From a virus: a stretch of DNA of 64,000 nt. Positions 12,561 to 64,000 of the stretch are shown here, piece after piece. The DNA is taken from positions 1 through 64,000 of the IMG/VR virus record IMGVR_UViG_3300005613_000035; one strand, given 5' to 3'. Position numbers and translations under genes: made by a program. Every line of letters begins with the position of its first letter. Position 1 is the first letter of the stretch. The notes under the pieces were generated by a model. The model worked only from the letters and a program-made list of their open reading frames with translations, made no database searches and was not told where the DNA came from.

Positions 12561-12577
12561 CTTAAAGGAAATACAAT

Positions 12578-14384: not shown

Positions 14385-14400
14385 TTGAAAGAGAGGTTGT

Positions 14401-14940
14401 ATGCAAAATGATAAGAATTTATGGAATTTTCGTCCAGCTTGGATGCAGTTGGTGTCAAGAAATAATGTAGTTGGATTAGAAGTAGGGGTTGCAAAAGGTA
14501 TAAACGCATATAATATGTTACGATTTTTAGATATTAAAAAGCTATACTTATTAGATCCTTATCTACCACAATCTGAAGTAGCAGATAGCGATGGTGAAAG
14601 ACCTTATGGTGAAGGCAATTATAGACAAGATAAATACAAAGCCGAAAGTTTGTTGAAACCATTTGAGGATAAGATAGAATGGATATTTGAAACGACTGAA
14701 GATGGTATTGGGAAAATATCAGATGAGAGTTTAAGTTTCGTATATATAGATGGATGCCATAAATATGATAGTGTAAAAAAGGATATTAACTTATGTATTC
14801 CAAAGGTTATATTTGGTGGAGTTCTTGGGGGCCATGATTGGAGTTCTTCTCATCCTGGGGTTGTTAATGCTGTTCTTGAAAAGTTTGGTAGGGATAAGAT
14901 TTTCTCATTACATCAAGACTGGTGGATAATTAAAGAATAG
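14401..14940 (+). CDS. Class I SAM methyltransferase (Methyltransf_24-like)
   Basis: LEVGVAKG, FVYIDGCH, GGHDW; paralog of the C-terminal domain of 5230..6723. Confidence 0.88.
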   Translation: MQNDKNLWNFRPAWMQLVSRNNVVGLEVGVAKGINAYNMLRFLDIKKLYLLDPYLPQSEVADSDGERPYGEGNYRQDKYKAESLLKPFEDKIEWIFETTEDGIGKISDESLSFVYIDGCHKYDSVKKDINLCIPKVIFGGVLGGHDWSSSHPGVVNAVLEKFGRDKIFSLHQDWWIIKE

Positions 14941-14944
14941 AAAA

Positions 14945-15979: not shown

Positions 15980-16011
15980 ACAACGTTTATCATTCTAAAT
16001 AGAAAATAAGT

Positions 16012-16677
16012 ATGGATAGTTTAAAAGATTGTGAGGAGATTCTTGTGTTAGGGGATTCTCATGCTATAGTATTCCTTAATGAAAAGTTTAAAACTACCTT
16101 TAATAACTTTGTTTTCAATGTATGCAAAGTTGGAGGAGCTACTTTATCAGGTATGAAAAATCCTAACACAATTACTCAAGCTATGCCAATTTTTTTAAGG
16201 TGTATCAAAATGTCTAAAGCTATGCAAGTCATTACTCTTATAGGTGAAGTAGATACAGGGTTCTTAATTTGGCATAGTGCTAATAAATATAATATATCAA
16301 TTTCAGAAGCATTAGATAAAGTAGTACAGAATTATATAGAGTTTCTAACTATGCTATCAAATAATTTTAAGGTTATTTGTATTAGTACACCACTTCCTGT
16401 AATAACGGATGGTGCCTATAAGGGTAAGGTTGCAAACGCTCGTAAAACTGTTAAAGCTACTCAAAAACAAAGAATAGAACTAACATTTACACTTAATAAA
16501 ACTATCAAAGAATTCTGTAAAAAAGAACAAATTGTGTTTGTAGATTTAGACATTAAATCATTGGGTAATGATGGATTAATTAAACCAGATTTGTTAAATG
16601 AAGACCCTTGTGATCATCACTATAATTCTGATGTGTATGCAGATTTAATTATTGAAGAATTAAAAAACATTTTATAG
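16012..16677 (+). CDS. SGNH/GDSL-like hydrolase or acyltransferase
   Basis: LGDSHA, GEVD, DHHY. Confidence 0.75.
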   Translation: MDSLKDCEEILVLGDSHAIVFLNEKFKTTFNNFVFNVCKVGGATLSGMKNPNTITQAMPIFLRCIKMSKAMQVITLIGEVDTGFLIWHSANKYNISISEALDKVVQNYIEFLTMLSNNFKVICISTPLPVITDGAYKGKVANARKTVKATQKQRIELTFTLNKTIKEFCKKEQIVFVDLDIKSLGNDGLIKPDLLNEDPCDHHYNSDVYADLIIEELKNIL

Positions 16678-16689
16678 AAAGGGGAGCTA

Positions 16690-17388
16690 TTGGAAAATAG
16701 ATTAGTTGTTACAAGAGCTGATGAGAATATATCAGAGATGACAAGTATTACTCATGAATACTTGAGGAAGTATGCTGATATCTGTAAGGCAGACTTTAAG
16801 GTGCTTGATAGCAATACCTGGCCACACTATCACTATAGGATATTAGAGTTGTACAAGTTGTTTGAAACGTATGATAGAATCTTGTGCTTAGATTCAGATA
16901 TTTTAATACTTAAAACATGTCCTAATATCTTTAAGCTTGTACCAGAAGATTGCATAGGTACTATATATGAAGATAAAGGTAGTAGGCTTGAAGATAGAAG
17001 AAATAGAATAGAGAAAATACAGAAAGAACGTGGTAATGTTGGATGGTATGAGAATTACATTAATACTGGAGTTATAATATTTTCTAAAATACATAGGGAG
17101 TTATTCAATCTTAACAAAGATGAATTATGGATGTCATTAGGATTTGATGATGTGGAATTAGGATTTCAAATTCATAGATTAGGCTATAATGTATATGAGC
17201 TTCCTTGTGAATGGAATTTTATGTCAATGCATAATGAAGGATGGAATCAGAATTCCTCAAGGTTTGATGCATTTATTATACATTATGCAGGGATGGGAAA
17301 TTTCTATGGAAGGCATATAAATAAAAGTAGGTTTGATTTTATAAAGGAAGACTATTTAGTTCTAAAAAAATATGATTTGCTAATATAA
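16690..17388 (+). CDS. GT-A (GT8-like) glycosyltransferase
   Basis: YDRILCLDSD, YINTGV, WN, IIHYAG. Confidence 0.88.
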   Translation: MENRLVVTRADENISEMTSITHEYLRKYADICKADFKVLDSNTWPHYHYRILELYKLFETYDRILCLDSDILILKTCPNIFKLVPEDCIGTIYEDKGSRLEDRRNRIEKIQKERGNVGWYENYINTGVIIFSKIHRELFNLNKDELWMSLGFDDVELGFQIHRLGYNVYELPCEWNFMSMHNEGWNQNSSRFDAFIIHYAGMGNFYGRHINKSRFDFIKEDYLVLKKYDLLI

Positions 17389-17400
17389 GGAATTAAAATA

Positions 17401-18057
17401 ATGATCAATTTAAATGTGGAGGGAACTTGTGGGGATGCATTTACTGTATGCTTAAAACTGTGGGCTATTGATAATGAAGAGATAAAAATTTTCCATAAGA
17501 CTGTACACACACAGTTTTATCCTCAGATTAGGGATATATATGGCCTGAAGAAAAATATAGAGGTAGCGTTTGTAGATAATTTTAATGATAGAGAAGAGTA
17601 CCTTGAACTTTCAGGTGTGCCTTATAAAAATAACCCAGACTCTATGGTTTGGTTCCCTGATTTAAAGTTACCGTATGTTTCAATTTTGGATTACCCATAT
17701 ATAGTGATTTGTCCTCATGCTGGTAGAGAGGATGCTATGGCTCGATCAGTACCTATTAAAACAATAGAGTACATGATAGAAGAAGTATCCCCTATTAAAT
17801 GTATTCTGCTGGGTACAAATAGTACGTATAAAGGTATAAAGAATTGTGAGAATTTAATTGGTGAAACTAATGTTATTGAGGCAATGTCTATAATAAGTGA
17901 TTGTAATGGATTCTGTGGTCCTGAAGGGCTTCTTTGTTTTGTTGCATTAAGCCAGCTAATTCCAAGTGTAATATTTTGGGTTAGATGGCAACCTATAGAA
18001 GCAAGAGTTATAGGGACTCCCTGGCAAGAGCATATTATAGATTTGATAAAAATATAA
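17401..18057 (+). CDS. GT-B (GT9-like) glycosyltransferase
   Basis: GTCGD, YIVICPHAG, ENLIGET, FCGPEG. Confidence 0.72.
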   Translation: MINLNVEGTCGDAFTVCLKLWAIDNEEIKIFHKTVHTQFYPQIRDIYGLKKNIEVAFVDNFNDREEYLELSGVPYKNNPDSMVWFPDLKLPYVSILDYPYIVICPHAGREDAMARSVPIKTIEYMIEEVSPIKCILLGTNSTYKGIKNCENLIGETNVIEAMSIISDCNGFCGPEGLLCFVALSQLIPSVIFWVRWQPIEARVIGTPWQEHIIDLIKI

Positions 18058-18070
18058 TGGGAGAGGATAC

Positions 18071-18742
18071 ATGAAAGTATTTCCGATGGGAACTGTAGCT
18101 GCTGGTGTGAATTATGGTACGATTGATGGAGTACAATGTCCATTTTTTGAGCCTAACTCTAAAGCTTTCAGTCATCCTATTCATTATAGTTTGCAAACTT
18201 TATTTCAGAATCAATCTATACTTACAAGAAAAATAGCTGAGCCAAGTTTATCTATTACATATGAATATACTAACATATATTTTCATGAGTTTTTACAAAT
18301 AAAAGAATGTGTGGCAGACGTAGAGGAAGCTGTTGATACGATATATGTAGTGGATTTATCAGCAGGTACTTTACCAGATTCCATGCCTTCTTGGGTACCT
18401 CATATTGGTTGGACCGGATTATATTCTTCTGTTGCAAATATGAAGGCTAACTATATGTTTCTTAATAATAGTACACAATGGAAAATAGGTGTAGTAAATA
18501 GTATTGTTACAAACACATCTATTCAATTAACTGTTACGGATAATTATGGAGATATGACAGAGGCACAAGCGGCAGTAGTAACAGGTAATGCAAGGACGCA
18601 TATTTATCCTATGTATGAATGCTATATAGTTCCAAACTCATTACAGAACTTTTCTGTTACAGGATATTGGAGTAATAAAGATTCAATGCGTGGCCCAATG
18701 TGGAGTGGTTCTATAAGTTTTACATCTAAATATAGAATATAA
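18071..18742 (+). CDS. Virion-type protein, possibly displaced distal tail (gpM/Dit-like) protein
   Basis: T/S/N-rich; FFEP...TLFQN...RK..PSLSITYEY...EF..I pattern resembles gpM-like Dit proteins. Confidence 0.4.
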   Translation: MKVFPMGTVAAGVNYGTIDGVQCPFFEPNSKAFSHPIHYSLQTLFQNQSILTRKIAEPSLSITYEYTNIYFHEFLQIKECVADVEEAVDTIYVVDLSAGTLPDSMPSWVPHIGWTGLYSSVANMKANYMFLNNSTQWKIGVVNSIVTNTSIQLTVTDNYGDMTEAQAAVVTGNARTHIYPMYECYIVPNSLQNFSVTGYWSNKDSMRGPMWSGSISFTSKYRI

Positions 18743-18753
18743 TAGGTGATAGT

Positions 18754-19443
18754 ATGACAATAGCTATAGTATGTAGCGGTGGTAGATCTGGTACTAATTT
18801 AGCTCTTGAATCTTTAAGAGGAAATCCTTATTTTAAAGTATCAAATGTTATAGAAGATAAGTACGTATTTGTTAGAGAGGAAGAGTTAATAGATAGATAT
18901 TTAACAAAGACAGATGTTGTCTACTGTCCTACATACAAGCATTTTAAACAGTTTATGATTAAAAATAGTAATGCCAATATTATATGGACTGTTAGACATC
19001 CATACGATTGGTGTTTAAGTAAATTGTATAGAGGAAGACCAACAGAAAAAAGTCTTTGGAAATACTCTGCTGATGCTACAATACGTGGTTGCTTAATGGA
19101 TATGAGTTGGATGTATTCTCTTTTAAAAGAGTTGGAGAAAGATTATCCATTAAGAATTATTAGAGTTAGAATGGAAGACCTAATTTTAAATATTGAAACT
19201 GAAACCAAAAGAATTTGTAGACGCCTTTGCATTCTTTGGGATAAAGAAATGATGTATCCATATAAAAGAATGAGAAATAAGGATAAGAAAAAAAGGTATG
19301 GAAATAAGTTAGACACGTCTCAAATAGGGTTATATAAAAATGTAGCTACTGTGTATGATGGATATTTTATGGATAAAATGGAAGCTATAGATTTAATATT
19401 TTCTAAAGTACAACCACTTATAAGAGAATTTAACTATGAGTAG
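18754..19443 (+). CDS. Sulfotransferase (P-loop type)
   Basis: SGGRSGTN, VRHPYD...S, RMEDLI. Confidence 0.8.
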   Translation: MTIAIVCSGGRSGTNLALESLRGNPYFKVSNVIEDKYVFVREEELIDRYLTKTDVVYCPTYKHFKQFMIKNSNANIIWTVRHPYDWCLSKLYRGRPTEKSLWKYSADATIRGCLMDMSWMYSLLKELEKDYPLRIIRVRMEDLILNIETETKRICRRLCILWDKEMMYPYKRMRNKDKKKRYGNKLDTSQIGLYKNVATVYDGYFMDKMEAIDLIFSKVQPLIREFNYE

Positions 19444-19978
19444 AAAACTAATTGTATCGTTAGATACATATTCTTGGGTCAGGTTTGTTGCTGGTACAAT
19501 TATTAGAGATCATATAAATGATTATGAAGTAATAATTGTGCATGAAGATTTAAGACCTATTTTATGGATGAGAAATTTATGTGTGCCGGCTATAATAGAA
19601 CAAAGGCGACATGACTTATATCAAGTAGGAACTACATTAAATATTAAAAAAATAAGTAATTTTAAGTATACATATGGTAATGTCCCAATAAAAAAACTTA
19701 TAACAGAGTTACATTTATATATTATTTTAAATTCCATTAGTGAAGTGTATATTCAAAGTCATGATATTTTAAATATAATATTTAAGGAACTGCAACTTAA
19801 ATATAATTTTAAGCTGTTTATATTTGGTAGTAATACAGATGATGTAATAAAGAAAACAATTCTTACGCAAGATGAGTATAAAGAAAAAATAGAGTTAAGA
19901 AAATTATTGGTAGGAATTCATACAAAAGAAGATAGAGATGTATATACCACTATAGAACGATTTACAGGGGGGAGTTAA
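19436..19978 (+). CDS. Hypothetical protein, degenerate PIG-L/LmbE-like fold
   Basis: AGTIIR..DYEVIIV and KEKIEL...ERF resemble PIG-L termini; the HPDD motif is absent. Confidence 0.4.
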   Translation: MSRKLIVSLDTYSWVRFVAGTIIRDHINDYEVIIVHEDLRPILWMRNLCVPAIIEQRRHDLYQVGTTLNIKKISNFKYTYGNVPIKKLITELHLYIILNSISEVYIQSHDILNIIFKELQLKYNFKLFIFGSNTDDVIKKTILTQDEYKEKIELRKLLVGIHTKEDRDVYTTIERFTGGS

Positions 19979-21007
19979 TTGGAATTTACACATTTAAACT
20001 CGTATTTTAGTATGTTCACTGATGAGGATCTAAAAAAAGAGTATAGTTTTACAAGTGATTTAGATACAGGGGATGCACTTGCTACACCATGCTCCGTAAC
20101 TATTCTAAATTCTAATGGTGTGGATAAATCTGCAACTATGATTGCAAGTGTTACTGTTAATTCTCCTACTATATCCTTTATTGTACAAGATCCTCCAGTA
20201 GCAGACACATATGAAATTAAGATAGCATGTCCTACTGATAATGCCAGAACTCATGTTAAAAAAGTAGTTTGTGATGTGTATAATTCTACAGACTTAGTAA
20301 CCTATATAGCAGGACCTACGTCTAATAGCTATGTTACACTTAAAGAAAGCAATGATTATGTTCGTGAAGTGCGGGGGCATATATCTACTTGGGACACACT
20401 TAGCAATGCCGGTAAAAAATATTTACTTATAGAAGCAGCAAGGGATATAGATAAATTCAATTTTATTGGTAAGAAATACTATGACAACCAAGCATTGGAA
20501 TTTCCACGTGATGATCATGATAATATTACTGGAAATTGTGCTACACCTATAACTCTTTCAAGTTTTAAAAATACTTCTTTTACATCAGATACTTATGGTG
20601 CTTATCGTAGTAATACAGATTATTGGGAGTATGGTACAGTGCATATGACTGCTGCAACGGCTCTTGGGGATATTAGAAATATATCTAATAGTAATATTAC
20701 TACAGACGTAATTACCACTACGGAAGATTTTTCTGCTACTCCTACAGAGAACACAACTTTTATAGCTTTTGATCCACTTGATACTAAGCTGAAGAATGCT
20801 CAAGTAATTCAAGCACTCCATATTTTAGATACAGATGGTGGAGGTGCATTGCAGAAGTACCGAAGTGCTGGTGCAAAGAGTGTTCAAATAGGGGATGTTG
20901 AAGTAGCTTTTTCTGGTACCAGTACAATGTCAAGAGGTGTCTCGTCTAAAGCAAAACAGTTATTAAGTCAATTTATAGAACGCTATCGTCGTGTTCAAAG
21001 AGCTTAA
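19979..21007 (+). CDS. Head-tail adaptor (DnaT-like) with extra N-terminal and inserted domains
   Basis: SNSYVTL..., FIGKKY..QALEFPR, VQIGDVEVAF. Confidence 0.7.
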   Translation: MEFTHLNSYFSMFTDEDLKKEYSFTSDLDTGDALATPCSVTILNSNGVDKSATMIASVTVNSPTISFIVQDPPVADTYEIKIACPTDNARTHVKKVVCDVYNSTDLVTYIAGPTSNSYVTLKESNDYVREVRGHISTWDTLSNAGKKYLLIEAARDIDKFNFIGKKYYDNQALEFPRDDHDNITGNCATPITLSSFKNTSFTSDTYGAYRSNTDYWEYGTVHMTAATALGDIRNISNSNITTDVITTTEDFSATPTENTTFIAFDPLDTKLKNAQVIQALHILDTDGGGALQKYRSAGAKSVQIGDVEVAFSGTSTMSRGVSSKAKQLLSQFIERYRRVQRA

Positions 21008-21018
21008 GGAATTATTAA

Positions 21019-21189
21019 ATGAAAATAAATCTTGATACTAAAATTTATGATGAGGTTGACATTAAGAAAATGAAGAGGAATTTAAGGGACGCATTTAAAG
21101 AAAAAGATAGTGATGTTAAGGTACATACACCAATATCTCCAAGTAAAAAAAGAATAAGTAGGAAGAGGAGGGCGTTATGTCATCATTAG
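21019..21189 (+). CDS. Small basic hypothetical protein (56 aa, not in ORF track)
   Basis: AAGGA RBS; MKINLDTKIYDEVDIKK...RISRKRRALCHH. Confidence 0.4.
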   Translation: MKINLDTKIYDEVDIKKMKRNLRDAFKEKDSDVKVHTPISPSKKRISRKRRALCHH

Positions 21190-21494
21190 TAGCTGGACTT
21201 TTAAACCAGACTATTGACACTATCTATAGTACAAGTAGTAGTGGGTATGGGGATAAGACTGAAACTATTTTGTACACAAATATTCCATGCAGATGGCAAG
21301 AAATTTCTGTATTAAATGTTGATGCTGCTGGTGAGAAGATAGACTATGAAGTTAAAATATGGTTGCTTCCAGATATAACTATAAATAAAAATTTCAGAGT
21401 ATTGAAAGGCTCTAAGAAATATATAGTTGAGGACGTTTCCTATAAATATGATCTTGATGGTAATGCAGACCATATAGAATGTTATTTAAAGTAG
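21177..21494 (+). CDS. Head-closure/stopper protein
   Basis: GYG..., IPCRW, DLDG..DHIECYL; position after adaptor. Confidence 0.7.
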   Translation: MSSLVAGLLNQTIDTIYSTSSSGYGDKTETILYTNIPCRWQEISVLNVDAAGEKIDYEVKIWLLPDITINKNFRVLKGSKKYIVEDVSYKYDLDGNADHIECYLK

Positions 21495-21503
21495 GTTATA
21501 TAA

Positions 21504-22241
21504 TTGTTAAAACTTGATATAAAATCTAAATATCTATCGGATAAAATAACACCTTCAATATACCAAGACTCAGGTCCTCCTACGTTATTGAAAGGTAAGG
21601 GCGGTGTTTTTGCTACTAGAATTGAGCAAGCAGGTCTACCTGAAACACAAGAGGTGCTTGGTAAATTTGGGAAAGCAATAAGCATATATGCAGCAAGAGC
21701 TATATCCCTTGTTACAATTGATTTATTAGCTAATGCACAACCGAGAGTACCTGTTGATACCGGTGAGCTACGTGAGAGCGGTGTAGCTACTTTAAAAATG
21801 GGTAGAGGTGGTAAAACATATATAGGTATTGGTCATGCAGATGGAACAATAGAAGCAAGATTAGGCAATGTTACTAAAAGTAAGCTTAAGAATGTTAGAA
21901 CTTTACGAGCAGAAGTATCATATAGAAGATTGAATGAAGAAGGTGCTGATATTGCGTTATGGGCACATGAAGATTTATTACCCTATTCGTCTTCCCAACA
22001 TCCAAGAGCGAGAACTTTAGGTACTGGTCCTAAGTATTTAGAAATACCTTGGATAGAAAAAGCTGCTGAATATATCAGGTTTATAAATGATGAAGTTGCA
22101 GGATTAACAATGAAACATAATATTGCACTTATATCTAAGATGCAGCAGACAAGGACAGGTAAATATAAAGTGAATTATGTAGATTTAAATATAGATAAAA
22201 TTCAGGTAGAAGGATACTATCCTCCTGGTTGGAAACATTAA
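21504..22241 (+). CDS. Neck protein (HK97 gp10-like)
   Basis: AQPRVPVDTGELRESG, A..AHE, GPKYLEIP. Confidence 0.75.
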   Translation: MLKLDIKSKYLSDKITPSIYQDSGPPTLLKGKGGVFATRIEQAGLPETQEVLGKFGKAISIYAARAISLVTIDLLANAQPRVPVDTGELRESGVATLKMGRGGKTYIGIGHADGTIEARLGNVTKSKLKNVRTLRAEVSYRRLNEEGADIALWAHEDLLPYSSSQHPRARTLGTGPKYLEIPWIEKAAEYIRFINDEVAGLTMKHNIALISKMQQTRTGKYKVNYVDLNIDKIQVEGYYPPGWKH

Positions 22242-22259
22242 TGAATAGGCGGTAACATA

Positions 22260-22670
22260 ATGGCTAACACGATATGTAATAATGTTGCATCATATTTAAC
22301 TGATCTTGGAGCTACTCATGCTGTATGTTCAGCATTAGGAGATACTTTAACATTTGCAGAGAATTTATTTATAGGTATAAGTCCTGCTACTGATATAGAT
22401 ACTATAGCTATATTACCTTATGGTGGGTCACCACCTAATATGGATAATATACGACAGGAAGCATCTATACAAATTAGAACAAAAACGGATTCGAGGTATC
22501 GCGGGTTAGGTTTACAACAAGAAATTATAAATTTTTTACACACAAAGGAGATAGTTGGGGTAGGAAAAATATTTGCTAAACAAAGTGTTCCAATATTGTT
22601 TGATGTTCTTGAATCTGGAGAGCACACTGTGATGGTCTCAAATTTTGATATAAAATATATAAAAGTGTAG
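22260..22670 (+). CDS. Tail terminator / minor capsid-3-like protein
   Basis: NLFIG..P, YGGSPP, SIQIR, NF; position before tube. Confidence 0.72.
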   Translation: MANTICNNVASYLTDLGATHAVCSALGDTLTFAENLFIGISPATDIDTIAILPYGGSPPNMDNIRQEASIQIRTKTDSRYRGLGLQQEIINFLHTKEIVGVGKIFAKQSVPILFDVLESGEHTVMVSNFDIKYIKV

Positions 22671-22698
22671 AAAGTAAATAAAAAGAGGATTAATATTT

Positions 22699-23886
22699 AT
22701 GAAAGACTATAATGCATTAATTACAAAAGATGGTAAGCCAATAAAAATTCTAATAGCAAGTAAGCATCAGTGTATCAGATGTATTAGAATTGCTGAAGCG
22801 TTAAAATCAGTGGGATATGAGGTTGATGCCCTAACGAATAAGATATCCTACGGTACAGAGATATTTGATAAGGTGTATTATTGGGGAACAGAACAACAGT
22901 TTAAGAATCAAATATATAGTCTAAAAGGCAAACACCAGATTTTAGAATGGGAAAATGAACCGGACACTCCTGTAAGCTGGGCTGCTGAAATGGCAGATAG
23001 AGATAAAACAAAAATCATATATAATGTACATGATGCTGACACAATTCGCCGTGGTTTATCACCTCTTGACGAACGACGAGCGTATATCAATTCTGACGCT
23101 GTAATTTATGTTAGCAAACCAATACAAAAGATTTGTACAGAGTTGCATGAAATAAAAAAACCTACAATAGTATTATACAATTACGGTACAAAGAGTATGC
23201 TGGAAAATACAAAAGTAGATTGGGATACAGTACAAAATAGACCACAAACATTAGTGTATGAAGGTGGAATAAATCCAATAGGGAATACACCAGACATCCA
23301 GCAGATGAACGTAATTTTTAAATATAGAAATTTATTTCCAATATTCCAACAATTAATACAACAAGGCAATGAGGTGCATGCATACGCTGGGAATAGTGAT
23401 GCATACGAAACTGGGCAATATACGGGTGTTGTTCTTCACCCGCCTACAAAGTTTGACCAGTTGTTAAAAGAACTTACAAAGTTTAAATATAATTTACTTG
23501 TATTTAATAATGAAGATGGAAAGCAAGATCAGGTGAATTATACCACGCCAAACAAACTTTGGGATGCGTTGATTGCTGGAGTGCCATCAATTGCATGCTG
23601 GTGTAAAGAAACCGAAAAGTACGTTAAAAAGCACGATATTGGTTGGTGCTTCACGAGCATCAAGAGTATAGGCAACTGCTCTGGGATAGATCCTGAGTAC
23701 ATGGAAAAACTGGAGAATGTACGCAGGAAAAGGGAGGAATTAATATTTGAAAATCAGGTTTGTCTGCTTGAAAACTTGTACGCTGAAATATTAGGCGTTG
23801 AGAAGAAAGATATTCCTCTGAAGTTGCAAAAACAATTAAGGTTTGAATATGGAGATGAAGCGATAGATAAATCCATAAGACCTTAA
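22699..23886 (+). CDS. GT-B (GT4-like) glycosyltransferase
   Basis: IYNVHD, IYVS, LVYEGG, PNKLWDALIAGVP. Confidence 0.85.
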   Translation: MKDYNALITKDGKPIKILIASKHQCIRCIRIAEALKSVGYEVDALTNKISYGTEIFDKVYYWGTEQQFKNQIYSLKGKHQILEWENEPDTPVSWAAEMADRDKTKIIYNVHDADTIRRGLSPLDERRAYINSDAVIYVSKPIQKICTELHEIKKPTIVLYNYGTKSMLENTKVDWDTVQNRPQTLVYEGGINPIGNTPDIQQMNVIFKYRNLFPIFQQLIQQGNEVHAYAGNSDAYETGQYTGVVLHPPTKFDQLLKELTKFKYNLLVFNNEDGKQDQVNYTTPNKLWDALIAGVPSIACWCKETEKYVKKHDIGWCFTSIKSIGNCSGIDPEYMEKLENVRRKREELIFENQVCLLENLYAEILGVEKKDIPLKLQKQLRFEYGDEAIDKSIRP

Positions 23887-23917
23887 TTTGTATTAGATAG
23901 ATAGGTGGTGAAAAACT

Positions 23918-24499
23918 ATGAGTAGCAAAGGAACAATAGATAGTGATAACTATACCATCGGGGGTGGCATGCTGTACTATAATGCCACAATTGGTGCCCA
24001 AGAATGTTTAGCAACTACAACTTTTTGGACTGCACACAATAACCTCGGTAACGTAGTGTCTGCTGAAATCTCACCCGATCTTTCCTATGTTGAACACTGG
24101 AAATCTAAGAACGGGAAGAGGGTAAAAGATAAAGAGGTGGTAAATACCGCCGCTATTAATATTACGTTTACCTTTGATGAGATGAATCAGGATAACCTTA
24201 GACGCTTTCTGTTTGGTACTAACTCCTCAGCATCTAAATTCACTGTGTTGGATAACACTTTGGAGGAAGGTTGTGGGCAGTTGGTGCTGGAAACAGCAGT
24301 AGGCCAGAACATGATATATAGGTTTCCAAAATGTTCACTAAGACCTGATGGAGCGTTAACCTTAAATCCTGAGTCTTGGCATGAGGGTTCATTCACCATA
24401 AATGTGGTTGAATACATTTCTGGGGATCATACTAATGCCACACTTAATGCAACCTGGTTAACCATGCCTTTTGGTGAGGTTGACACGGCTGAATTTTAG
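23918..24499 (+). CDS. Major tail tube protein
   Basis: NYTIGGGMLY, LGNV, EH, TFTFDE...NL..FLFG; synteny. Confidence 0.8.
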   Translation: MSSKGTIDSDNYTIGGGMLYYNATIGAQECLATTTFWTAHNNLGNVVSAEISPDLSYVEHWKSKNGKRVKDKEVVNTAAINITFTFDEMNQDNLRRFLFGTNSSASKFTVLDNTLEEGCGQLVLETAVGQNMIYRFPKCSLRPDGALTLNPESWHEGSFTINVVEYISGDHTNATLNATWLTMPFGEVDTAEF

Positions 24500-56614: not shown

Positions 56615-57106
56615 TTACTCCTTTATATTTACATTACTGGCGTTATCCTCTACTTTTTTAGGAACATCCTTTATCTTTTTAGTATTGGTCTTCTCATCTA
56701 TTTTTTTAGGTGCATCAGCTTTCTTAGGTACTATAACATTAGCTTCAAAACTTTTATTAAGTTCATCAACAAGAGATCTCATAGCATATATAGTTAAGGG
56801 TATACCTCTTTGTATATCAAAGAAGTTTTGTAGGCTATTTAATACTTTGGTTTGAACTTCTGGTTTATATGCTCCTCCATCAGATTTTTCCAAGGTATTA
56901 TTTTTAAATATACCACCAATTTCATTAACAATAGCTCTCATAGCGTATGTAGTTAGCTTAACTTCATGCTGTTCTAACCAAAAGTTTTGAATACTAGTTA
57001 AAACTTGTTGTTTAATATCACCCTTATCCTCTGCATTTACTACTGATACAAACGAAAAACAAATACAAATTACTGCAATAATACTTACTCTCATAATAAT
57101 TTTCAT
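56615..57106 (-). CDS. Secreted protein with two ~45-aa internal repeats
   Basis: Signal peptide; VL.S.QNF...LT.YAMR..V.E occurs twice. Confidence 0.7.
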   Translation of the reverse strand: MKIIMRVSIIAVICICFSFVSVVNAEDKGDIKQQVLTSIQNFWLEQHEVKLTTYAMRAIVNEIGGIFKNNTLEKSDGGAYKPEVQTKVLNSLQNFFDIQRGIPLTIYAMRSLVDELNKSFEANVIVPKKADAPKKIDEKTNTKKIKDVPKKVEDNASNVNIKE

Positions 57107-57110
57107 AGTT

Positions 57111-57566
57111 TTAGATCTCCTCTTTAAAATTTTTAGTTTTTAGGTCTTTAAGGTTGTTATCCTCTTGTTTTAAAAAATCATCATACCAGATTCTATATGA
57201 ATCTTCTGGCCTATCATAAGTTGATGCCTCTATAAATTTGGCTACTTGCGAAAAAGATTTGAATCTATGAAGCACTCCGGGTTTAATTTGAAAAGAATCA
57301 CCAACATTTAAAAACATAGATTTTATTTTACAGTCTGAATCTACTTTCTCTAATAATAAAATTCCAGATATAACAAAAAAGGTCTCTGTTTTCTGCAAGT
57401 GGTAATGAAATTTTCCGCCTGAAGAAAATTTATTATTTGTACATACTAAAAGTTTACCACAATAGTTTGCCTCTCGATCATTCTCAAATACTATTTCATA
57501 CCCCCAGTCTTTCATAATCTTTTGTTGTTGCAATAGTACCTCCTTTTTATTAACAGTTGGAATCAT
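57111..57566 (-). CDS. Cupin (sugar isomerase-like)
   Basis: KDWGYE, YCGKLL, HYH..K.ETF, PGVLHRF, EAST...DSYR. Confidence 0.82.
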   Translation of the reverse strand: MIPTVNKKEVLLQQQKIMKDWGYEIVFENDREANYCGKLLVCTNNKFSSGGKFHYHLQKTETFFVISGILLLEKVDSDCKIKSMFLNVGDSFQIKPGVLHRFKSFSQVAKFIEASTYDRPEDSYRIWYDDFLKQEDNNLKDLKTKNFKEEI

Positions 57567-57850
57567 TTACCATATTTGTGTTTCTCAAGTATTTTGATAG
57601 CAGAATTTAATTCTGACCTACCCCAAAAACAAGATACACCTGCGGCTTTTCTAAGTCTTTCAGATGCTAAGTAGTTAATAATAATGTCCTTGGCTATTTT
57701 TAAGACCCAAATGCTGATACATGACCAGCAAGTCCCAAAAATAATAGTTGGAAGATATTGTAAAATTATCCACCAAATACAAAGCTCTTTTGTGGATTCA
57801 CCAACCTGTTCTAACATTGTAATCATTTCTCTTACTATCTCTATGTCCAT
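57563..57850 (-). CDS. Membrane protein
   Basis: Central hydrophobic helix; GGAG RBS. Confidence 0.6.
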   Translation of the reverse strand: MDIEIVREMITMLEQVGESTKELCIWWIILQYLPTIIFGTCWSCISIWVLKIAKDIIINYLASERLRKAAGVSCFWGRSELNSAIKILEKHKYGK

Positions 57851-57925
57851 AACAGTCTCCTTTTTATTAATAAATATAACGTTTTTAATTAGCCACCCAG
57901 CTTTTGGATACTACCTTTGATAGCC

Positions 57926-59041
57926 TCATACTATAAGTTTCTCCATGTGCTCTCTAATTTCACCCCAATTTCCCACTCTAAGAATACCAGAATTGGCTCT
58001 AACATGTTGGTTCCAGGGTTTATCAAATAAAAAGCAGGATGCTCTGGTATTCCTATACACATCTTCAACTATTGATCCTCTATCCTCCACCAAAAATTTA
58101 ATGTCATACTCGTTAATAACATCTGCTTTTGTTTTACCTTCTTCTCCATCACAAAAAGATAAGGAATAAAAAATTCCTAATTTGTTTAATAGCTTACAAG
58201 TTACATTTTTAAACCTTTCATCCCTCCCAGTAATAAAATGAATGCGAGTTCCTTTAGATGCTAACCATAGTATAGTTTCTACAGCGCCATCTATAAATTT
58301 AAGGTTATCACTATCTTCAATTACTAACTCTATTGCAGCCCTTTCAACCTCCTTGTCAATATGAAGACATTTATATATGTCATACCTTTTTATACGATGT
58401 ACAGAGAATACTTCATTATAAAACCTACCTATAAGGGATATTATGGAAGGTATTGTAGTAACAATACAATCGTCTATATCAATTCCAAAGCTAATATTTG
58501 ATTGATGTAGCTTGGTTTTAAATTCTACAGCACACTCCTTTAGATCTTCAATAGTTCCTATATTGTCTATTATAAAATCATAGTTGTAATCCTCAACGTT
58601 TTTGTCAGAATCATTATTAGGTATAGCTATGTTAGGCTTATGTATCAACAAAGTCTTACACACACTTTCAAATCTATAATTTACATGAGATACAAGTTTT
58701 TTTATTTCTTCGGGTTCTCTACAATGTATGAATATAAAAACCGAATTATAGTTAGTTACTACATACTCTGCCTGTAGAACATGCTCTATATATTCAAAAG
58801 TTGCCCAACAAGGCCCCTCATTATACTCAACCCATAATTTTTTAATGTCCGATAAAAATTTTCTATATTTGTCATTTTTTATTGGGCCAGGTACGAGTTC
58901 TCTAACTGCTTTCTTTACTTTGTTGATAGTAGAGAATTCATATACAACCTCATTATTAGAACATATGTTCTCGAATAGCTCTACAAATGTGTCTTTACCA
59001 GCATTAGCACTTCCGTTTATGATTATTACATAGCTTTTCAC
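57926..59041 (-). CDS. P-loop (dNMP kinase-like) domain fused to HAD 5'(3')-deoxyribonucleotidase
   Basis: INGSANAGKDT, HCREP.E; then GIDIDDCI, ITGR, VEDR, PWN. Confidence 0.85.
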   Translation of the reverse strand: MKSYVIIINGSANAGKDTFVELFENICSNNEVVYEFSTINKVKKAVRELVPGPIKNDKYRKFLSDIKKLWVEYNEGPCWATFEYIEHVLQAEYVVTNYNSVFIFIHCREPEEIKKLVSHVNYRFESVCKTLLIHKPNIAIPNNDSDKNVEDYNYDFIIDNIGTIEDLKECAVEFKTKLHQSNISFGIDIDDCIVTTIPSIISLIGRFYNEVFSVHRIKRYDIYKCLHIDKEVERAAIELVIEDSDNLKFIDGAVETILWLASKGTRIHFITGRDERFKNVTCKLLNKLGIFYSLSFCDGEEGKTKADVINEYDIKFLVEDRGSIVEDVYRNTRASCFLFDKPWNQHVRANSGILRVGNWGEIREHMEKLIV

Positions 59042-59056
59042 TTAGTTATCCTCCTA

Positions 59057-59227
59057 TTATTCTTTCTCATCTATAACATCAAGTAATTCTTTAAATTCTT
59101 TTGTTATTATCAATCTAACATCATCAATATCTATACAACCATTGTTAAAATCAAACTGATATCTGATGAATTTAGATATCATTTTATTTATATGATTATA
59201 AATATTTATATTATGATCTATGTCCAT
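59057..59227 (-). CDS. Small hypothetical protein (56 aa, not in ORF track)
   Basis: Open frame filling the gap, directly after the promoter. Confidence 0.35.
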   Translation of the reverse strand: MDIDHNINIYNHINKMISKFIRYQFDFNNGCIDIDDVRLIITKEFKELLDVIDEKE

Positions 59228-59239
59228 AGAATTTCCTGT

Positions 59240-59268
59240 AGTATACTCTATTAAATACTATTTGTCAA
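59240..59268 (-). promoter_or_regulatory. Sigma70-type promoter
   Basis: TTGACA-17 bp-TATACT on the minus strand. Confidence 0.72.
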
Positions 59269-59641
59269 GTGCTTTTAATAGCCTTTTGTATATTTCTAAA
59301 AAGTTATCTAAATCCATTATTATTACAGGGTCAACATGATTCTTCTTGCAGATTAATGCCCAATATCTTCCTGCTTCCTGGTTCAATTTTGCTTGCTTTA
59401 TCCATGTTAATACTGACCATTTTTCCTGATTCTTGCATTCAATATCTAATAGAATTAATTGTTTAGCTTTACCATACAGCTTTATATCACGTCCTGCCTG
59501 CCCCATTTCTCGTGATTCTATCTCCTTATCTTTACCCCAAGAAATACCTGTAAGTTCTGATAATTTTTTACATACAAGTTTTTGAAGGTTACGCCCCTTT
59601 GCTTTCCTGCTTTTAATTGATATACTTTTCTTTTTAGCCAT
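59258..59641 (-). CDS. Holliday junction resolvase-like PD-(D/E)xK nuclease
   Basis: KAKGRNLQ, MGQAGRDI, IECKNQE. Confidence 0.82.
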   Translation of the reverse strand: MAKKKSISIKSRKAKGRNLQKLVCKKLSELTGISWGKDKEIESREMGQAGRDIKLYGKAKQLILLDIECKNQEKWSVLTWIKQAKLNQEAGRYWALICKKNHVDPVIIMDLDNFLEIYKRLLKALDK

Positions 59642-59660
59642 ACATTCCTCTTTAACTAAA

Positions 59661-60086
59661 TTATTTAAGCCTCCAATTTATTGGACTATCTGGAGTATAA
59701 AAGTTGAAGAGTTGGTGTTTATGGAATCCCCCACTTTTGAAAGGCGTACATAATAAGTCTTTCAAAATAGTTGATATTTCAGGAATCGTTTCTTTATATG
59801 TCTGCTTTCCTACCCTACTATCTGATAATAATAGCCATTCTTCTGGGTCTATGTCTGGTATATCCACAGCTTCAAGTTCGTGTTCCTCAATTCGGATAAG
59901 AGCAAGAGGGAACGCGTAAGTATAGCAGTTCCATTCTTCATCCCACATAGAATTTTCAATTGGACGAGGTGGAATATTCTGTGCCCAATCATGAAGAATC
60001 TTGACCATTTGGCAGCGCCGAAACTTTGGTTCTCGCATATTATCGTCCCTCACGGTTGCGTCTTTTATATTTTGGTCTTTTATCAT
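59661..60086 (-). CDS. Hypothetical protein
   Basis: ORF in the minus-strand run. Confidence 0.55.
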   Translation of the reverse strand: MIKDQNIKDATVRDDNMREPKFRRCQMVKILHDWAQNIPPRPIENSMWDEEWNCYTYAFPLALIRIEEHELEAVDIPDIDPEEWLLLSDSRVGKQTYKETIPEISTILKDLLCTPFKSGGFHKHQLFNFYTPDSPINWRLK

Positions 60087-60151
60087 GTTTATGCTATTGC
60101 CTTTTAGATTTGTTATATAGATTTAACATTCCGATGTTATGATGGTAGTTC

Positions 60152-60337
60152 TCAATCTTTCCATAAAGCTAAATCCTGGATAATAAAATCAATTTGGTCG
60201 TCCTTACCACCTTTAATATGGACTTCATCCTCTTCTTGGTTTAATGGGACAATTTCCAAAAAAGCTCCATGCGTCATAAAAACGTTCTCGATATCTTTTT
60301 TTAAATCCTTTTCAAATTGATTTAATTTTTTTGCCAT
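60152..60337 (-). CDS. Hypothetical protein (cassette-like)
   Basis: Starts right after GTTAGGAGG, which is both a core site and the RBS. Confidence 0.65.
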   Translation of the reverse strand: MAKKLNQFEKDLKKDIENVFMTHGAFLEIVPLNQEEDEVHIKGGKDDQIDFIIQDLALWKD

Positions 60338-60348
60338 ATTTCAACGCC

Positions 60349-60468
60349 TCCTAACGTTTTAAATAAGCGGGTCCACGGTTTTTTCACAGGGACCGAACCC
60401 TGACCGCCCAACCGTAAAACGTCTTGAGACCCGCTTGTGTTCCGCACAAATGCAGCGGCTTGTTAGTC
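60349..60468 (-). mobile_element. attC-like integron recombination site (120 bp)
   Basis: GACTAAC-AAGCC-GCTGCA ... AAGCGGGTC/GACCCGCTT stem ... AAAAC-GTTAGGA. Confidence 0.72.
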
Positions 60469-60663
60469 ATTAAACATAAATAATGACCCTTCATCATCGT
60501 TCCTTGGATCATATTCTTTCCAGTCATTTCGCTTCTGACCTTCTATTGGAACCCTTTCCTTTAAGGGTATTGTATGATTTTTCCAATGTTTTATTTCTGG
60601 AGTGGATTCACGATATATTGCACTCCGAACGTGACAACATTTTACTACGCTTTCAAAATCCAT
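60463..60663 (-). CDS. Hypothetical protein carried on an integron-type cassette
   Basis: AGGAG RBS; stop codon lies inside the GACTAAC inverse core. Confidence 0.75.
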   Translation of the reverse strand: MDFESVVKCCHVRSAIYRESTPEIKHWKNHTIPLKERVPIEGQKRNDWKEYDPRNDDEGSLFMFND

Positions 60664-60693
60664 AATTAATTTCTCCTATGACTAACGTTTTAA

Positions 60694-60993
60694 TCAGCGG
60701 TGCATCGCTATTGCCATACAACCCTCATGGTTGACCTCAGGGCCTTGACCACAGATTTTACACTGGCTTTCCGCATCTGGGGAATTCAAATATAATTTGG
60801 CAAATACCGGACACCATCGTTTCATAACCTCATACGTTTCCGGCGCAAATGTATTATCATCCTCACCATATAACCTTCCAACCAATATAAGTATATCAGA
60901 TTTCAATTCGCGCATTTTGTCCTGACAATCGAAAATATGATCATCCTTTTCGTCATGTGTCTTGCCAACAAAATTCCGATCTTCAAGTTCCAT
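60694..60993 (-). CDS. Hypothetical protein (cassette-like)
   Basis: Starts after GTTAGGAGGC; ends in an attC-like right arm. Confidence 0.65.
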   Translation of the reverse strand: MELEDRNFVGKTHDEKDDHIFDCQDKMRELKSDILILVGRLYGEDDNTFAPETYEVMKRWCPVFAKLYLNSPDAESQCKICGQGPEVNHEGCMAIAMHR

Positions 60994-61024
60994 TCTAAGC
61001 CTCCTAACATGGAATTAACGGGCT

Positions 61025-61381
61025 TTAGTCCTTGTTAAATTCCAATTCGCAATCATTACAGTTCATATAGGTCATCTGGCATAGATCAGATGTCGAAGGT
61101 ATAGTTATTGACGACCCATAATCTCTGGGCTTCAATTCATATTGTCCTTGGTCAGGATCGGCGCGATACCCAAATTCTACCTCAGGTATCTGCAACTCGG
61201 TTACTGTTCCGGCGTCTATGTCCATGCAGTATAATTGTCCGGTGTACTCGTTTGATAACTCATTAAACTTCCAAAGCATAACAGTAGCGGCCTCCGGTGA
61301 ACCTACATGCTTCACAAGTGGTTGAAAGTCAATGTCTGATCCCCCTCCGTTTAAAAACATTAGTAGAATGAATATTTTCAC
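61025..61381 (-). CDS. Hypothetical protein
   Basis: AGGAGG RBS; higher GC. Confidence 0.6.
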   Translation of the reverse strand: MKIFILLMFLNGGGSDIDFQPLVKHVGSPEAATVMLWKFNELSNEYTGQLYCMDIDAGTVTELQIPEVEFGYRADPDQGQYELKPRDYGSSITIPSTSDLCQMTYMNCNDCELEFNKD

Positions 61382-61459
61382 TTTTTACCTCCTTATTTTA
61401 TCCATTTTATAAACCAACCATAAATAACAGCTTGTCGTTCCATATAACATCTCTACCAC

Positions 61460-61900
61460 TCATCCCGAAGTATCTCGATATTCCAATGTACCTCCAGTTA
61501 TCGGTATTATCATCCTCTTCCAAAACTCTGCCCACCTTCCAGAATTAAACCAGACTTGTTCTACTCCTAACTTATTAGGCAATCCAAGAGTGAATGCACC
61601 CATACCATCAAATTCTTCTAAAAAGCTTTCCTTTGTAAATCTATTAAGTGGACAAAGAAAATTTAAGCAACTTTTTGCACGGTCACAAACTCCAGATTTT
61701 GGTGCTACATTTATAGTAACCACCATAAGCATATTCTTATAATCCTTTGGGGTTACGCCAAAAATTAATTCACTGTAACTACAAATTCCATAATAAAATT
61801 TGGAATATACGGTTTCAGGCTTGAATATGCACTGGCCATTAACCCATGTAACACTGGCAGAAATTGAATCTGGTAATATTATATTTTTTTCATGTGCCAT
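61460..61900 (-). CDS. Hypothetical protein
   Basis: GGGAG RBS; C..C..CP motif. Confidence 0.65.
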   Translation of the reverse strand: MAHEKNIILPDSISASVTWVNGQCIFKPETVYSKFYYGICSYSELIFGVTPKDYKNMLMVVTINVAPKSGVCDRAKSCLNFLCPLNRFTKESFLEEFDGMGAFTLGLPNKLGVEQVWFNSGRWAEFWKRMIIPITGGTLEYRDTSG

Positions 61901-62074
61901 TTATAACTCCCTTTTTATCTTCTTTAATAACGATCTTCATACTACCTTTTATATACCAAAGTTTTATAGACAGTTCTGTATCTCCCTCTCCAAAAAATTT
62001 AATGTAATCTGATGATAAACACACAGTTTTATTCATTAGCAACTATCTGATCCTTTGTATTGAAACATATTGTT

Positions 62075-63967
62075 TTAATTCCTATTGGCTATCCTTGATA
62101 CACCATCTTCCATACTAACTTCTATAACATTTGAAAATGAGTCTGCTATACCTAAATCATGTGATATAACAAATATAGTATCTAACTCATTAGCTTTATT
62201 TTTTAGTAGCCGTATCACATCCTGTTTTCCATTTTCATCAAGGCTGAGTTCAAGAATTTCGTCAAGGAAGAGAAAGCTAAAACGACCTAATAAAGAATTG
62301 AAAGCAATCTTATCAGCAATTGCAACTCTTTGTCTTTGGCCTCCTGAAAATGACCAATAATCCGTTATTGTTTTATCAGGGCTGAATACTTTGTAGCTCA
62401 CCTTTTCTCTTACATCCCCAGATTTTGTTTGTGCTTGGGAATCTATACTTACACATAAGTTATCAGATATACTACTTAATATAGAATTGGTAGCTATTTC
62501 AACACTCTCTAAAAAAGTTTCAGCCCTCATATTTGGAATCCCAGATTTACCAAAAGCTATTTTAAAGAATTTGTAGTACTTCAAATCTTCATATAATTCT
62601 TTCAACTCTTTCTTCAAGACATCCAACTCTAATTTCTTACTATCTTTTGCTTTATGTTTATCATTTATTAACTTAATGTATGGATTTTCTTCGCTTTTTA
62701 TTTCTTTTATTCTATTCAAGCACTCCTGTATTTTTTCCTCCTTAACTTCAATTTTATATTCAATTTGTTTTATAGAGCTGACTACATTAGTTATTATATC
62801 TTGCTTGCTTTTAATACGTTTCTCTTCCTCCCTAATAGACTCTTTAAAATCCATATTACAATATTGAATTGCATCTATACTGTCCAGCTCGTGAGACAAC
62901 TCCTCACATGTATACCAGAGTTTGTCATATTCCCCCTCTGCTTTTTTCAGAATAGTATTATATTGCTGACATGTATCTCTACTGTTTTCTTCCAACTTAT
63001 CACAGAATACATGAAGCACAGGACATGTATAATTGCTTATAGTGTCTAAGTCTTCCTTTATTCTATCTATTTCAGATGATATTCTTGACATTTTAATCTT
63101 TATATCAGTTATTTCTTTATTATATTCTTTGTGTTTATCTGAATCATATGGCTTTATTAAACCTTGTAACTTAGCTATGTTATCATTAATACTATTAATA
63201 TCTTTTTTAGCTTGCTTTTTATTCGCAACAAGCTTATTTATAATATGTGTAAAATCTTCAGTCTCTATTTCTTTAATTTCTTTATTTATATTTTCAATCT
63301 TCAGCTTGTTATTTGCAATCCATTCTTTCTTATTATTCTCCAACTCTAATGTCTCATCTACAATATCTTTAATGAACTCTTTTATATATTCTATCTTTAT
63401 ATTAATGTCATGTATATTAGTATTAGTTTCTTCTATCTTATTCTTTGCTGCTGTATAGTATGTGTGATACTTATGTAAGTCTAATGCATCATATATAATT
63501 TTCTTGCGGTCACTTTCCTTAGCTTCGGGAAATGAAGGAGAACTCTGTGAAAAGATGGTGCTGATACCTAATATATCTTTGTTAATTCCAAAATATTTAT
63601 TTATATTCTTTTGAGTTTCCCGACGATCTGATTCTGTATGTGCTTCTTCATTATTATTTATAGAAAATATAGTTTTATTTCCATATGTCTTATGTTCCCG
63701 ATACTTTAATATTTTAATTTCATTATCACCATGTTGAAATACACAACCAAGCTCACAGTTTCCTTCTTTATTGAACGAAAATTCTCCCAGATCGTTTAAT
63801 TCGGATGTAGTGTCTGTAAGTAAGTATTCAATAGCGAGTCGAATGGTTGTCTTCCCAAACCCATTTTTGGCAGCTATAAGTACCAAACCCAAAGTATCTA
63901 TATCTTTTAGATGAAAGTCTTTGTAAGACCTGAAATTTTTGAACCACAACTCTTTTAGAACAAACAT
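62075..63967 (-). CDS. SbcC/Rad50/T4 gp46-like recombination ATPase
   Basis: KNFRSY, Walker A KNGFGKTT, coiled coil with CPVL..C hook, FSGGQRQR, FLDE, SH. Confidence 0.92.
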   Translation of the reverse strand: MFVLKELWFKNFRSYKDFHLKDIDTLGLVLIAAKNGFGKTTIRLAIEYLLTDTTSELNDLGEFSFNKEGNCELGCVFQHGDNEIKILKYREHKTYGNKTIFSINNNEEAHTESDRRETQKNINKYFGINKDILGISTIFSQSSPSFPEAKESDRKKIIYDALDLHKYHTYYTAAKNKIEETNTNIHDINIKIEYIKEFIKDIVDETLELENNKKEWIANNKLKIENINKEIKEIETEDFTHIINKLVANKKQAKKDINSINDNIAKLQGLIKPYDSDKHKEYNKEITDIKIKMSRISSEIDRIKEDLDTISNYTCPVLHVFCDKLEENSRDTCQQYNTILKKAEGEYDKLWYTCEELSHELDSIDAIQYCNMDFKESIREEEKRIKSKQDIITNVVSSIKQIEYKIEVKEEKIQECLNRIKEIKSEENPYIKLINDKHKAKDSKKLELDVLKKELKELYEDLKYYKFFKIAFGKSGIPNMRAETFLESVEIATNSILSSISDNLCVSIDSQAQTKSGDVREKVSYKVFSPDKTITDYWSFSGGQRQRVAIADKIAFNSLLGRFSFLFLDEILELSLDENGKQDVIRLLKNKANELDTIFVISHDLGIADSFSNVIEVSMEDGVSRIANRN

Positions 63968-64000
63968 TATTTAATCCTTTCTCTTTAAAAAATTTACACC

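Follow-up and report, generated by a model that had tools for sequence, protein, structure and literature searches.

Probable remnant of an integron-type gene cassette, eroded and apparently immobile, in a large phage showing no integrase

Integron parts have been described from phages before. In a survey by Qi, Rajabal, Ghaly, Tetu and Gillings (2023, Front Microbiol, PMC9892861), 10,705 phage genomes were screened and integron parts were found in 21 of them, including 17 clusters of attC sites lacking integron integrases (CALINs), which are defined there by at least two predicted attC sites of at least 20 bits each. Recombination with attI1 via the integron integrase IntI1 was demonstrated there for five of the six phage attC sites examined, and illegitimate or off-target recombination at GTTRRRY-like motifs is proposed as a route into phages. 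Here we describe a unit of 345 bp at positions 60349-60693 (minus strand) of IMG/VR virus record IMGVR_UViG_3300005613_000035. The analysis concerned the first 64 kb of this record, in the following called the window; the whole record comprises 81,188 bp, is estimated to be about 56% complete, has a G+C content of 33% and encodes, among others, a ribonucleotide reductase, an SbcC-like nuclease subunit, a DNA methyltransferase and very large proteins. The unit consists of a small gene, ORF66, and the spacer that follows it, and it is probably an eroded and immobile integron-type cassette residing in a large phage that shows no integrase. With the phage CALINs of PMC9892861 it shares cassette signatures, boundary cores of the GTTRRRY type and the absence of an integron integrase from the contig. 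Unlike these, it possesses a single site, which has no L' arm and does not pass the models, and it is thus a decayed remnant and not a CALIN. A first-pass annotation of the window had called integrons rare in phages, which is fair, though phage attC arrays have already been published in that survey. The window consequently holds a degraded new instance of a known phenomenon and no new mechanism.

All features of the unit are read directly on the minus strand. The 5' boundary, TTAAAAC-G|TTAGTCAT (60678..60693), holds the first copy of a direct repeat together with the remainder of an R' box, GTTAGTCAT (60686-60678). The repeat copy is followed by TCAT, by the Shine-Dalgarno sequence AGGAG (60677-60673), which lies 9 nt ahead of the ATG in the leader at 60664..60677, and by ORF66 itself (60463..60663), the cargo of 66 amino acids, whose C-terminus LFMFND is invariant among homologs. 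The TAA stop codon of ORF66 is situated within ATGACTAAC (60470-60462), the exact reverse complement of the start 9-mer GTTAGTCAT at nine of nine positions. The spacer comprises 120 nt (60468-60349), begins with GACTAAC and ends with ATTTAAAAC-GTTAGGA. Its first part is an intact 5' half of an attC site (60450..60468), consisting of the R'' box GACTAAC (60468-60462, containing the stop codon), the short spacer AAGCC (60461-60457) and the L'' arm GCTGCAT (60456-60450). DNA folds and an alignment with a long attC site of another phage contig (locus L026, 2335-2457) place an inner stem of 9 bp at 60365..60436, with the arms AAGCGGGTC (60436-60428) and GACCCGCTT (60373-60365) enclosing a branched G+C-rich centre. 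The 3' end (60349..60364) is made up of ATTTAAAAC (60364-60356) and the R' box GTTAGGA (60355-60349), and the L' arm expected between the inner stem and ATTTAAAAC is missing. Retained in the unit are the 5' boundary G|TTAGTCAT, the spacer, the L'' arm and the inner stem, as are the inverse core that overlaps the stop codon and the terminal GTTAG core. The start boundary, ribosome-binding site, reading frame of 66 codons and 120-nt site ending in GTTAGGA listed in the first-pass annotation are all present, and its claim of exactly complementary core and inverse-core ends with the stop codon inside R'' holds as well.

Canonical cassettes, such as those in class 1 plasmid arrays or in the sedentary-type array of a Gemmatirosa megaplasmid, likewise consist of a promoterless small reading frame with a G|TT boundary complementary to their own inverse core, a stop codon inside R'', and a spacer and L'' arm in register, and the length of the window site falls within their range. 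The unit differs from a canonical attC in that it possesses no L''/L' helix with an extrahelical base, no attI, no IntI and no neighbouring attC, reaches about 5 bits on the models, and has a distance of 25 nt between R box and inner stem, compared with 9 nt in the canonical controls.

The consensus of the R'' box is RYYYAAC. That of the R' box is given as 5'-G|TTRRRY-3' in PMC9892861. The window boxes, GACTAAC and GTTAGGA, are each one letter off consensus, pair at five of seven positions and contain the AAC and GTT triplets, while the site length of 120 nt lies inside the span of 57-133 nt of the genuine sites used. Half-sites were scored with ungapped matrices made from the first and last 23 columns of 36 genuine attC sites. 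Among 127,956 positions the 5' half-site of the window ranks second to third and the 3' half-site first to second; against random 23-mers of spacer composition the former has P = 2e-5 and the score of the latter is reached by none of 400,000. Together they form the sole correctly ordered pair in the 81-kb record, for which about 0.002 such pairs are expected by our own arithmetic from the ranks. Furthermore, a 25-base pattern covering the stretch R''-spacer-L'', TAACAAGCCGCTGCA-N(3-9)-GGAACACAAG, is common to the window and to a model-positive attC of 123 nt on contig G305 (see below), and is found in no other IMG/VR contig.

It is the comparison with this long attC that reveals what the window site has lost. 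In the G305 site a second stem precedes the L' arm GTGAGC, behind which come a spacer of 5 nt and R'. The inner stem and centre of the window spacer are the counterpart of that second stem and of the variable centre of the G305 site in the alignment to L026 2335-2457; in the window, the stem arm GACCCGCTT directly abuts ATTTAAAAC-GTTAGGA without any L'. No partner for the L'' arm GCTGCAT was found by reading or in DNA folds, and no complementary arm is present ahead of the 3' spacer. The first-pass annotation had described the L''/L' pairing as imperfect; the fault is real and was understated, as there is no L' partner at all. The point at which L' is lost is also where the direct repeat begins, and the other copy of this repeat is formed by the end of the upstream gene ORF99 and the intergenic leader. 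The repeat, which the first-pass annotation does not mention, consists of the 12 bp TTAAAACGTTAG at 60693-60682 and 60362-60351. The window has no further exact copy, and in the 81-kb record the core of 10 nt, AAAACGTTAG, is likewise restricted to two copies. If one indel is allowed, it grows to CCGCTGA / CCGCTTAT, that is CCGCT(G/T)A(T)TTAAAACGTTAG; the GGAGG behind the second copy leads into the downstream gene ORF61. Judged from its letters and this alignment, the window site is attC-derived and has lost L'.

Three covariance models (R1, R2 and R3) were built for this analysis and validated on real integrons. An IntI search of 301 genomes gave one broken gene and nothing else, and from this IntI fragment we arrived at class-1 integron plasmids, a Tenderia plasmid and the Gemmatirosa megaplasmid as sources of controls, in which 16 attC sites were marked by eye behind annotated cassette genes. 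Model R1 comprises seven class-1 attC sites with R and L helices set by hand, MAFFT having misaligned four of 11 training sites. It recovered six of nine held-out eye-marked sites at 18.4-69.7 bits, namely those of aadA1 (69.7), dfrA17 (30.6), aac(6')-IIc (30.4), Tenderia c1 (27.7), aadA5 (26.9) and dfrA27 (18.4), and missed arr-3, ereA2 and Tenderia c6; in the Gemmatirosa array it recovered 23 evenly spaced sites. Model R2 was rebuilt from 36 genuine integron attC sites and R3 solely from 30 phage and metagenome matches (24 distinct). In a reciprocal control R3 finds 34 genuine integron attC sites at E ≤ 0.01. In the sites that make up R3, pairing amounts to 86%, and 12 of the 17 pairs show compensatory changes in an alignment that is itself fitted to the model; in genuine phage and metagenome sites the L''/L' helix is 91% paired. 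A naive hairpin scan for AAC...GTT in loci L046 and L047 was discarded, as it did not isolate the real sites. The array of L047, on Gemmatirosa kalamazoonensis plasmid 1 (NZ_CP007129.1, locus 13406-24424), consists of 23 evenly spaced attC sites on one strand downstream of an IntI-like gene; it is a large integron array of the sedentary type from Gemmatimonadota, and the record is unannotated in the collection.

None of the three models lists the window site at E ≤ 10 when the whole window is searched with filters off. On both strands R1 and R2 give 12 and 11 matches, respectively, at this threshold, the best with 11.1 and 10.9 bits, and all of them lie elsewhere. When the search is restricted to the region (60300-60720), R2 assigns 4.4 bits to the site, and R3 aligns exactly 60349-60468 with 5.4 bits and flags non-standard pairs in the R and L boxes, although the 5' half fits the R3 consensus. 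Listed genuine sites reach 18-82 bits. The search with attC models that the first-pass annotation proposed therefore speaks against it on this point, and its description of the cassette as complete does not survive these scores and the missing L' arm. No second attC was found in the 81-kb record, R2 giving no match at E ≤ 0.1. The annotation was right that the window holds no IntI: in the whole record of 81,188 bp there is no tyrosine recombinase of family PF00589 at E ≤ 1. What marks an integron or CALIN, an integrase nearby or at least two close attC sites, is thus not found in the record, which covers an estimated 56% of the genome.

Further support for an origin from integrons comes from the relatives of ORF66. 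The protein has 14 homologs with 53-73% identity, all of 64-66 amino acids, and no match in Pfam, PHROG, PADLOC, NCBIfam or a PDB profile search; the protein atlas gave no hint of a function either. Relatives were collected from 28 IMG/VR loci, three of about 185,000 species genomes and 80 metagenome stretches kept out of 116, giving 111 loci in all. A model-positive attC adjoins the gene at six of these, L008 and L026 (two of the 28 IMG/VR loci) and L060, L061, L062 and L072 (four of the 80 from metagenomes). The sites beside the gene reach 44.1 and 35.7 bits (L008), 43.4 bits (L026), 29.7 and 25.3 bits (L060) and 35.1 and 20.6 bits (L072); with filters off, the gene of L060 and of L072 has an attC on either side. 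Loci L060-L062 and L072 are among the closest relatives (62-65% identical). Their cassette starts with G|TTATCA, followed by GGAGG and ATG, and its TGA stop lies in TGATAAC, a complement at seven of seven positions, with its own attC coming next. Such a 7/7 match between start and the heptamer over the stop codon occurs at four of the 111 homolog loci, precisely the four model-positive metagenome loci. The boundary pair GTTGTAT/ATACAAC of L008 and the pair GTTAGTC/GACTAAC of the window obey the same rule in other letters, and the R' of the L072 attC, GTTAGGAGGC, is identical to the 10-mer that closes the window spacer. The assignment to the integron-cassette type made in the first-pass annotation is thus borne out, since the same gene family is found in model-positive attC cassettes with the same boundary rule and the 5' half of the window site fits the consensus.

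Two of these loci are situated on contigs that are true phage, with terminase, portal, major head and tail proteins, a DnaB-like helicase and an Erf-like annealing protein. At L008 six co-oriented attC sites are present, the one of 44.1 bits just upstream and that of 35.7 bits just downstream of the gene. At L026 default filters reveal four attC sites and a search with filters off eight, located on the strand opposite to the gene. The contig of L008 (G304, IMGVR_UViG_3300048835_000859) carries its six very similar sites, of 22-44 bits, round small reading frames at 20843-23292 of the record, and a generic tyrosine recombinase frame with 28.6 bits on the IntI model, below the cut-off, ends about 400 bp off the last attC and converges on the array. 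On the contig of L026 and L057 (G305, IMGVR_UViG_3300014656_000073), at least eight attC sites are model-positive, and a tyrosine recombinase is absent; its 123-nt attC occurs twice, near-identical and inverted, about 8.7 kb apart (L057 3673-3795 on the plus and 12446-12562 on the minus strand). Both contigs are new full examples of phage attC arrays of the kind reported in PMC9892861. No integron integrase above the cut-off was found on G304 or G305 or in any of the three bacterial genomes with a homolog. A single small gene family spans canonical integron cassettes, attC arrays in true phage contigs and ordinary phage early regions. Its copies appear to have eroded to different degrees, which provides a tangible record of genes passing between integrons and phages as well as a means of spotting former cassettes once the hairpin has been lost.

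The spacer is also conspicuous by composition and folding. It forms the top 80-nt G+C peak of the whole window, 0.59 compared with a mean of 0.33. Its DNA fold beats that of shuffled sequences with z = -2.8 on either strand (as good in none of 200 shuffles for the minus and two of 200 for the plus strand), whereas its RNA fold is no better than that of shuffles (z = -1.4). On its opposite strand the spacer contains a third copy of TAAAACGT (window 60415-60422, plus); three of the five copies in the window fall within 340 bp, and the one at 60415-60422 pairs with the 3' boundary repeat in the RNA fold. No tRNA was found in the spacer region, and Rfam gave nothing above the gathering score, the lone match at E ≤ 10 having 14.5 bits as opposed to a gathering score of 80. 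No further copy of the spacer is present in the 81-kb record, a 20-mer searched for in IMG/VR is without match there, and the phage collection gave no DNA match. A scan of 57000-64000 for consensus promoters remained at chance level (39 matches, 34.5 expected), with no promoter signal standing out.

Several observations weigh against reading the unit as an eroded integron cassette. None of the covariance models reports the site, so that the case for an attC origin depends on the resemblance of the half-sites and on context. For the 3' half-site the matrix is a poor discriminator, genuine phage attC sites ranging from -14 to 19.7 on it, and the 15-mer match to the G305 attC taken by itself has E = 0.029, the database searched being small. 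Across the window there are about 17 distinct direct repeats with a length of at least 12 nt within 500 bp, where our own composition estimate predicts about seven, and an inverted match of at least 9 nt between leader and stop is found for two of the 105 genes of the record. Repeats of this size not being rare in an A+T-rich genome, direct and inverted repeats alone are weak evidence. The first repeat copy overlaps the last codons of ORF99, and these codons are retained in an ORF99 homolog with 91% identity. The pairing probability of R'' and R' on the bottom strand is 0.41, within the range of 0.22-0.98 of genuine attC sites, and this predicted value leaves room for some residual folding of the bottom strand; as a test for attC sites the measure was dropped because these values do not discriminate. 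Finally, 105 of the 111 homolog loci have no adjacent attC match, including the closest one, L058 (73% identity), so that most members of the family reside outside cassettes and transfer may have gone in either direction.

These points have to be set against the alternatives. If the unit were a small phage gene of the ordinary kind with a structured element such as a terminator, small RNA or regulatory hairpin in the intergenic space behind it, and had no integron history, the negative results of all attC models and the commonness of repeats of such size would be accounted for, as would a stem followed by TTATTT, which is terminator-like; moreover, the stop-codon motif of ORF66 is partly forced by the invariant ending ...LFMFND, that is F-N-D-stop. 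Against this speak the absence of any Rfam family above the gathering score and of a tRNA, an RNA fold no better than shuffles, the presence of both half-sites in the right order and spacing when only about 0.002 pairs are expected per record, the specific 25-base pattern shared with a validated attC, and the homologs in canonical cassettes of the same layout. Chance resemblance is accordingly disfavoured, and we consider it unlikely. Even harder to uphold is the opposite proposal, that of the first-pass annotation, according to which the cassette is complete and active and can be excised or inserted by a host integron integrase. Core and inverse core are indeed complementary at nine of nine positions, the AAC and GTT triplets are present, length and R-box pairing (0.41) are inside the genuine ranges, and IntI1 can recombine phage attC sites according to PMC9892861. 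On the other hand, the site reaches a mere 4.4 (R2) or 5.4 bits (R3) in the region-only searches and is absent from those of the whole window, where genuine sites have 18-82 bits, nothing pairs with GCTGCAT, and the record holds neither a second attC nor a tyrosine recombinase. An active cassette is therefore very improbable.

How an eroded cassette came to its present place is a separate question. The unit would derive from an integron array; its left junction resembles a true G|TT crossover product, and the right side appears to have been remodelled exactly at the start of the direct repeat (CCGCT..TTAAAACGTTAG). Remodelling may have occurred by short-homology recombination or template switching with the phage backbone at GTTAG and CCGCT, or two adjacent attC sites of the same family with near-identical 3' ends, comparable to those of L008, may both have decayed later. 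As a possible but doubtful variant, the unit could have been copied from an integron array or another phage by short homology without any handling by an integrase in this phage, with a left crossover at GTTAG and a right one at CCGCT that would have duplicated 19-20 nt of backbone and cut off the L' arm. Duplication of 12-20 nt is not expected from a G|TT crossover, so that the direct repeat suits this variant, as does its beginning at the very point behind GACCCGCTT where the sequence departs from what an attC should continue with. Repeats without a GTT core at other homolog loci point in the same direction: at L005 (3960-4215) the ORF66 homolog lies between duplicated leaders of 18 nt that include the ribosome-binding site, and at L003 and L004 (4185-4290) 11 nt of the last codons of the homolog are repeated, which hints that the family also moves by short-homology events. 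Small phage genes are reportedly shuffled by way of repeats in the promoter-stem-loop (PeSL) cassettes (PMC2839356, PMC4122927), which by analogy may serve as a precedent. The left boundary, however, occupies the canonical position and is complementary to its own inverse core at nine of nine positions, as in an integrase product; neighbouring attC sites in one array, as at L008, share near-identical ends of 10-20 nt, which would give the same repeat without duplication; and the empty site, predicted to read CCGCTGATTAAAACGTTAGGAGGC, was not found in IMG/VR, neither it nor the ORF99-end pattern giving any match there.

Two further systems invite comparison. The reported insertion of cassettes outside att sites by the integron integrase (bioRxiv 10.1101/2022.09.11.507474) would account for a single cassette lying at a site with GTT in a genome free of integrons; it differs from the present case in that a whole attC would be expected at the right junction and no target duplication of 12-20 nt. 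The PeSL cassettes of T4-type phages resemble the unit as small accessory genes of large lytic phages between short regulatory repeats that can mediate gain and loss. Unlike these, the unit lacks a multi-copy promoter and stem-loop, its repeat occurs in just two copies in 81 kb, no promoter was read, and it carries integron core motifs.

Integron integrases bind the folded bottom strand of attC at paired R and L boxes. Since the L box is absent, the bottom strand of the eroded cassette is unable to form the two-box hairpin and the unit is probably fixed in place; the window copy is most likely inert. ORF66 would now probably be an ordinary early gene read through from upstream, and the structured G+C-rich spacer may terminate transcription weakly or stabilise RNA. 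What was once the R' core, GTTAGGAGG (60347..60355), may have become the ribosome-binding site of ORF61, with whose Shine-Dalgarno leader it coincides. The downstream gene ORF61 (60152..60337, ATG at 60337) is an orphan with a GTTAG-type leader and possibly the next eroded cassette; its only database match, 98% identical, is marked as the protein the window itself encodes. The upstream gene ORF99 (60694..60993) opens the extended direct repeat with its final codons, CCGCTGA, and has the leader GTTAGGAGGC (61008-60999). No relatives in a DNA context were obtained from the alignment of the ORF99 family in IMG/VR, nor by locus searches with the single proteins ORF66, ORF99 and the SbcC-like gene. 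The neighbours of the unit are absent from the 28 IMG/VR and 80 metagenome loci, save for the SbcC-like gene in L029 and one unrelated reading frame each in L021 and L070.

The 81-kb record contains two copies of GTTAGGAGG(C), both of which precede a start codon, one in the leader of ORF99 (61008) and one in that of ORF61 (60355). GTTAG is present in the leader (-35..-3) of four of 105 genes, and three of these four are the consecutive genes ORF99, ORF66 and ORF61; by our own combinatorial estimate the chance of such clustering is about 0.002. We tentatively consider that the stretch 60110-61050 with these three genes might be what remains of an integron-derived cassette array in a large phage of the lytic type. 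In such an array the hairpins would decay and the GTTAGG-type R' cores persist, the latter having survived because they were recruited as Shine-Dalgarno leaders (GTTAGGAGG). Integron cassettes would then be a regular, traceable source of orphan 'early' phage genes, and canonical, half-eroded and erased copies of the ORF66 family would form a decay series. Palindromes of the type TAAC...GTTA stand right after ORF118 and ORF61 on the minus strand (61010-61045, GGAATTTAAC..GTTAATTCC; 60121-60142, TAACAT..ATGTTA). They score at chance on the models, one of them with 9.8 bits and E = 7.5 (R3), and could be collapsed attC remnants or due to chance.

Among the homolog loci, L058 (2426-2640) has no trace of an attC, and the ribosome-binding site for the adjoining gene comes immediately after the stop codon; this locus is the apparent, fully 'domesticated' end of the decay series. 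At L069 a tRNA-like stretch recognized by eye from its acceptor and T-arm pattern (about 1195-1275) directly follows the ORF66 homolog.

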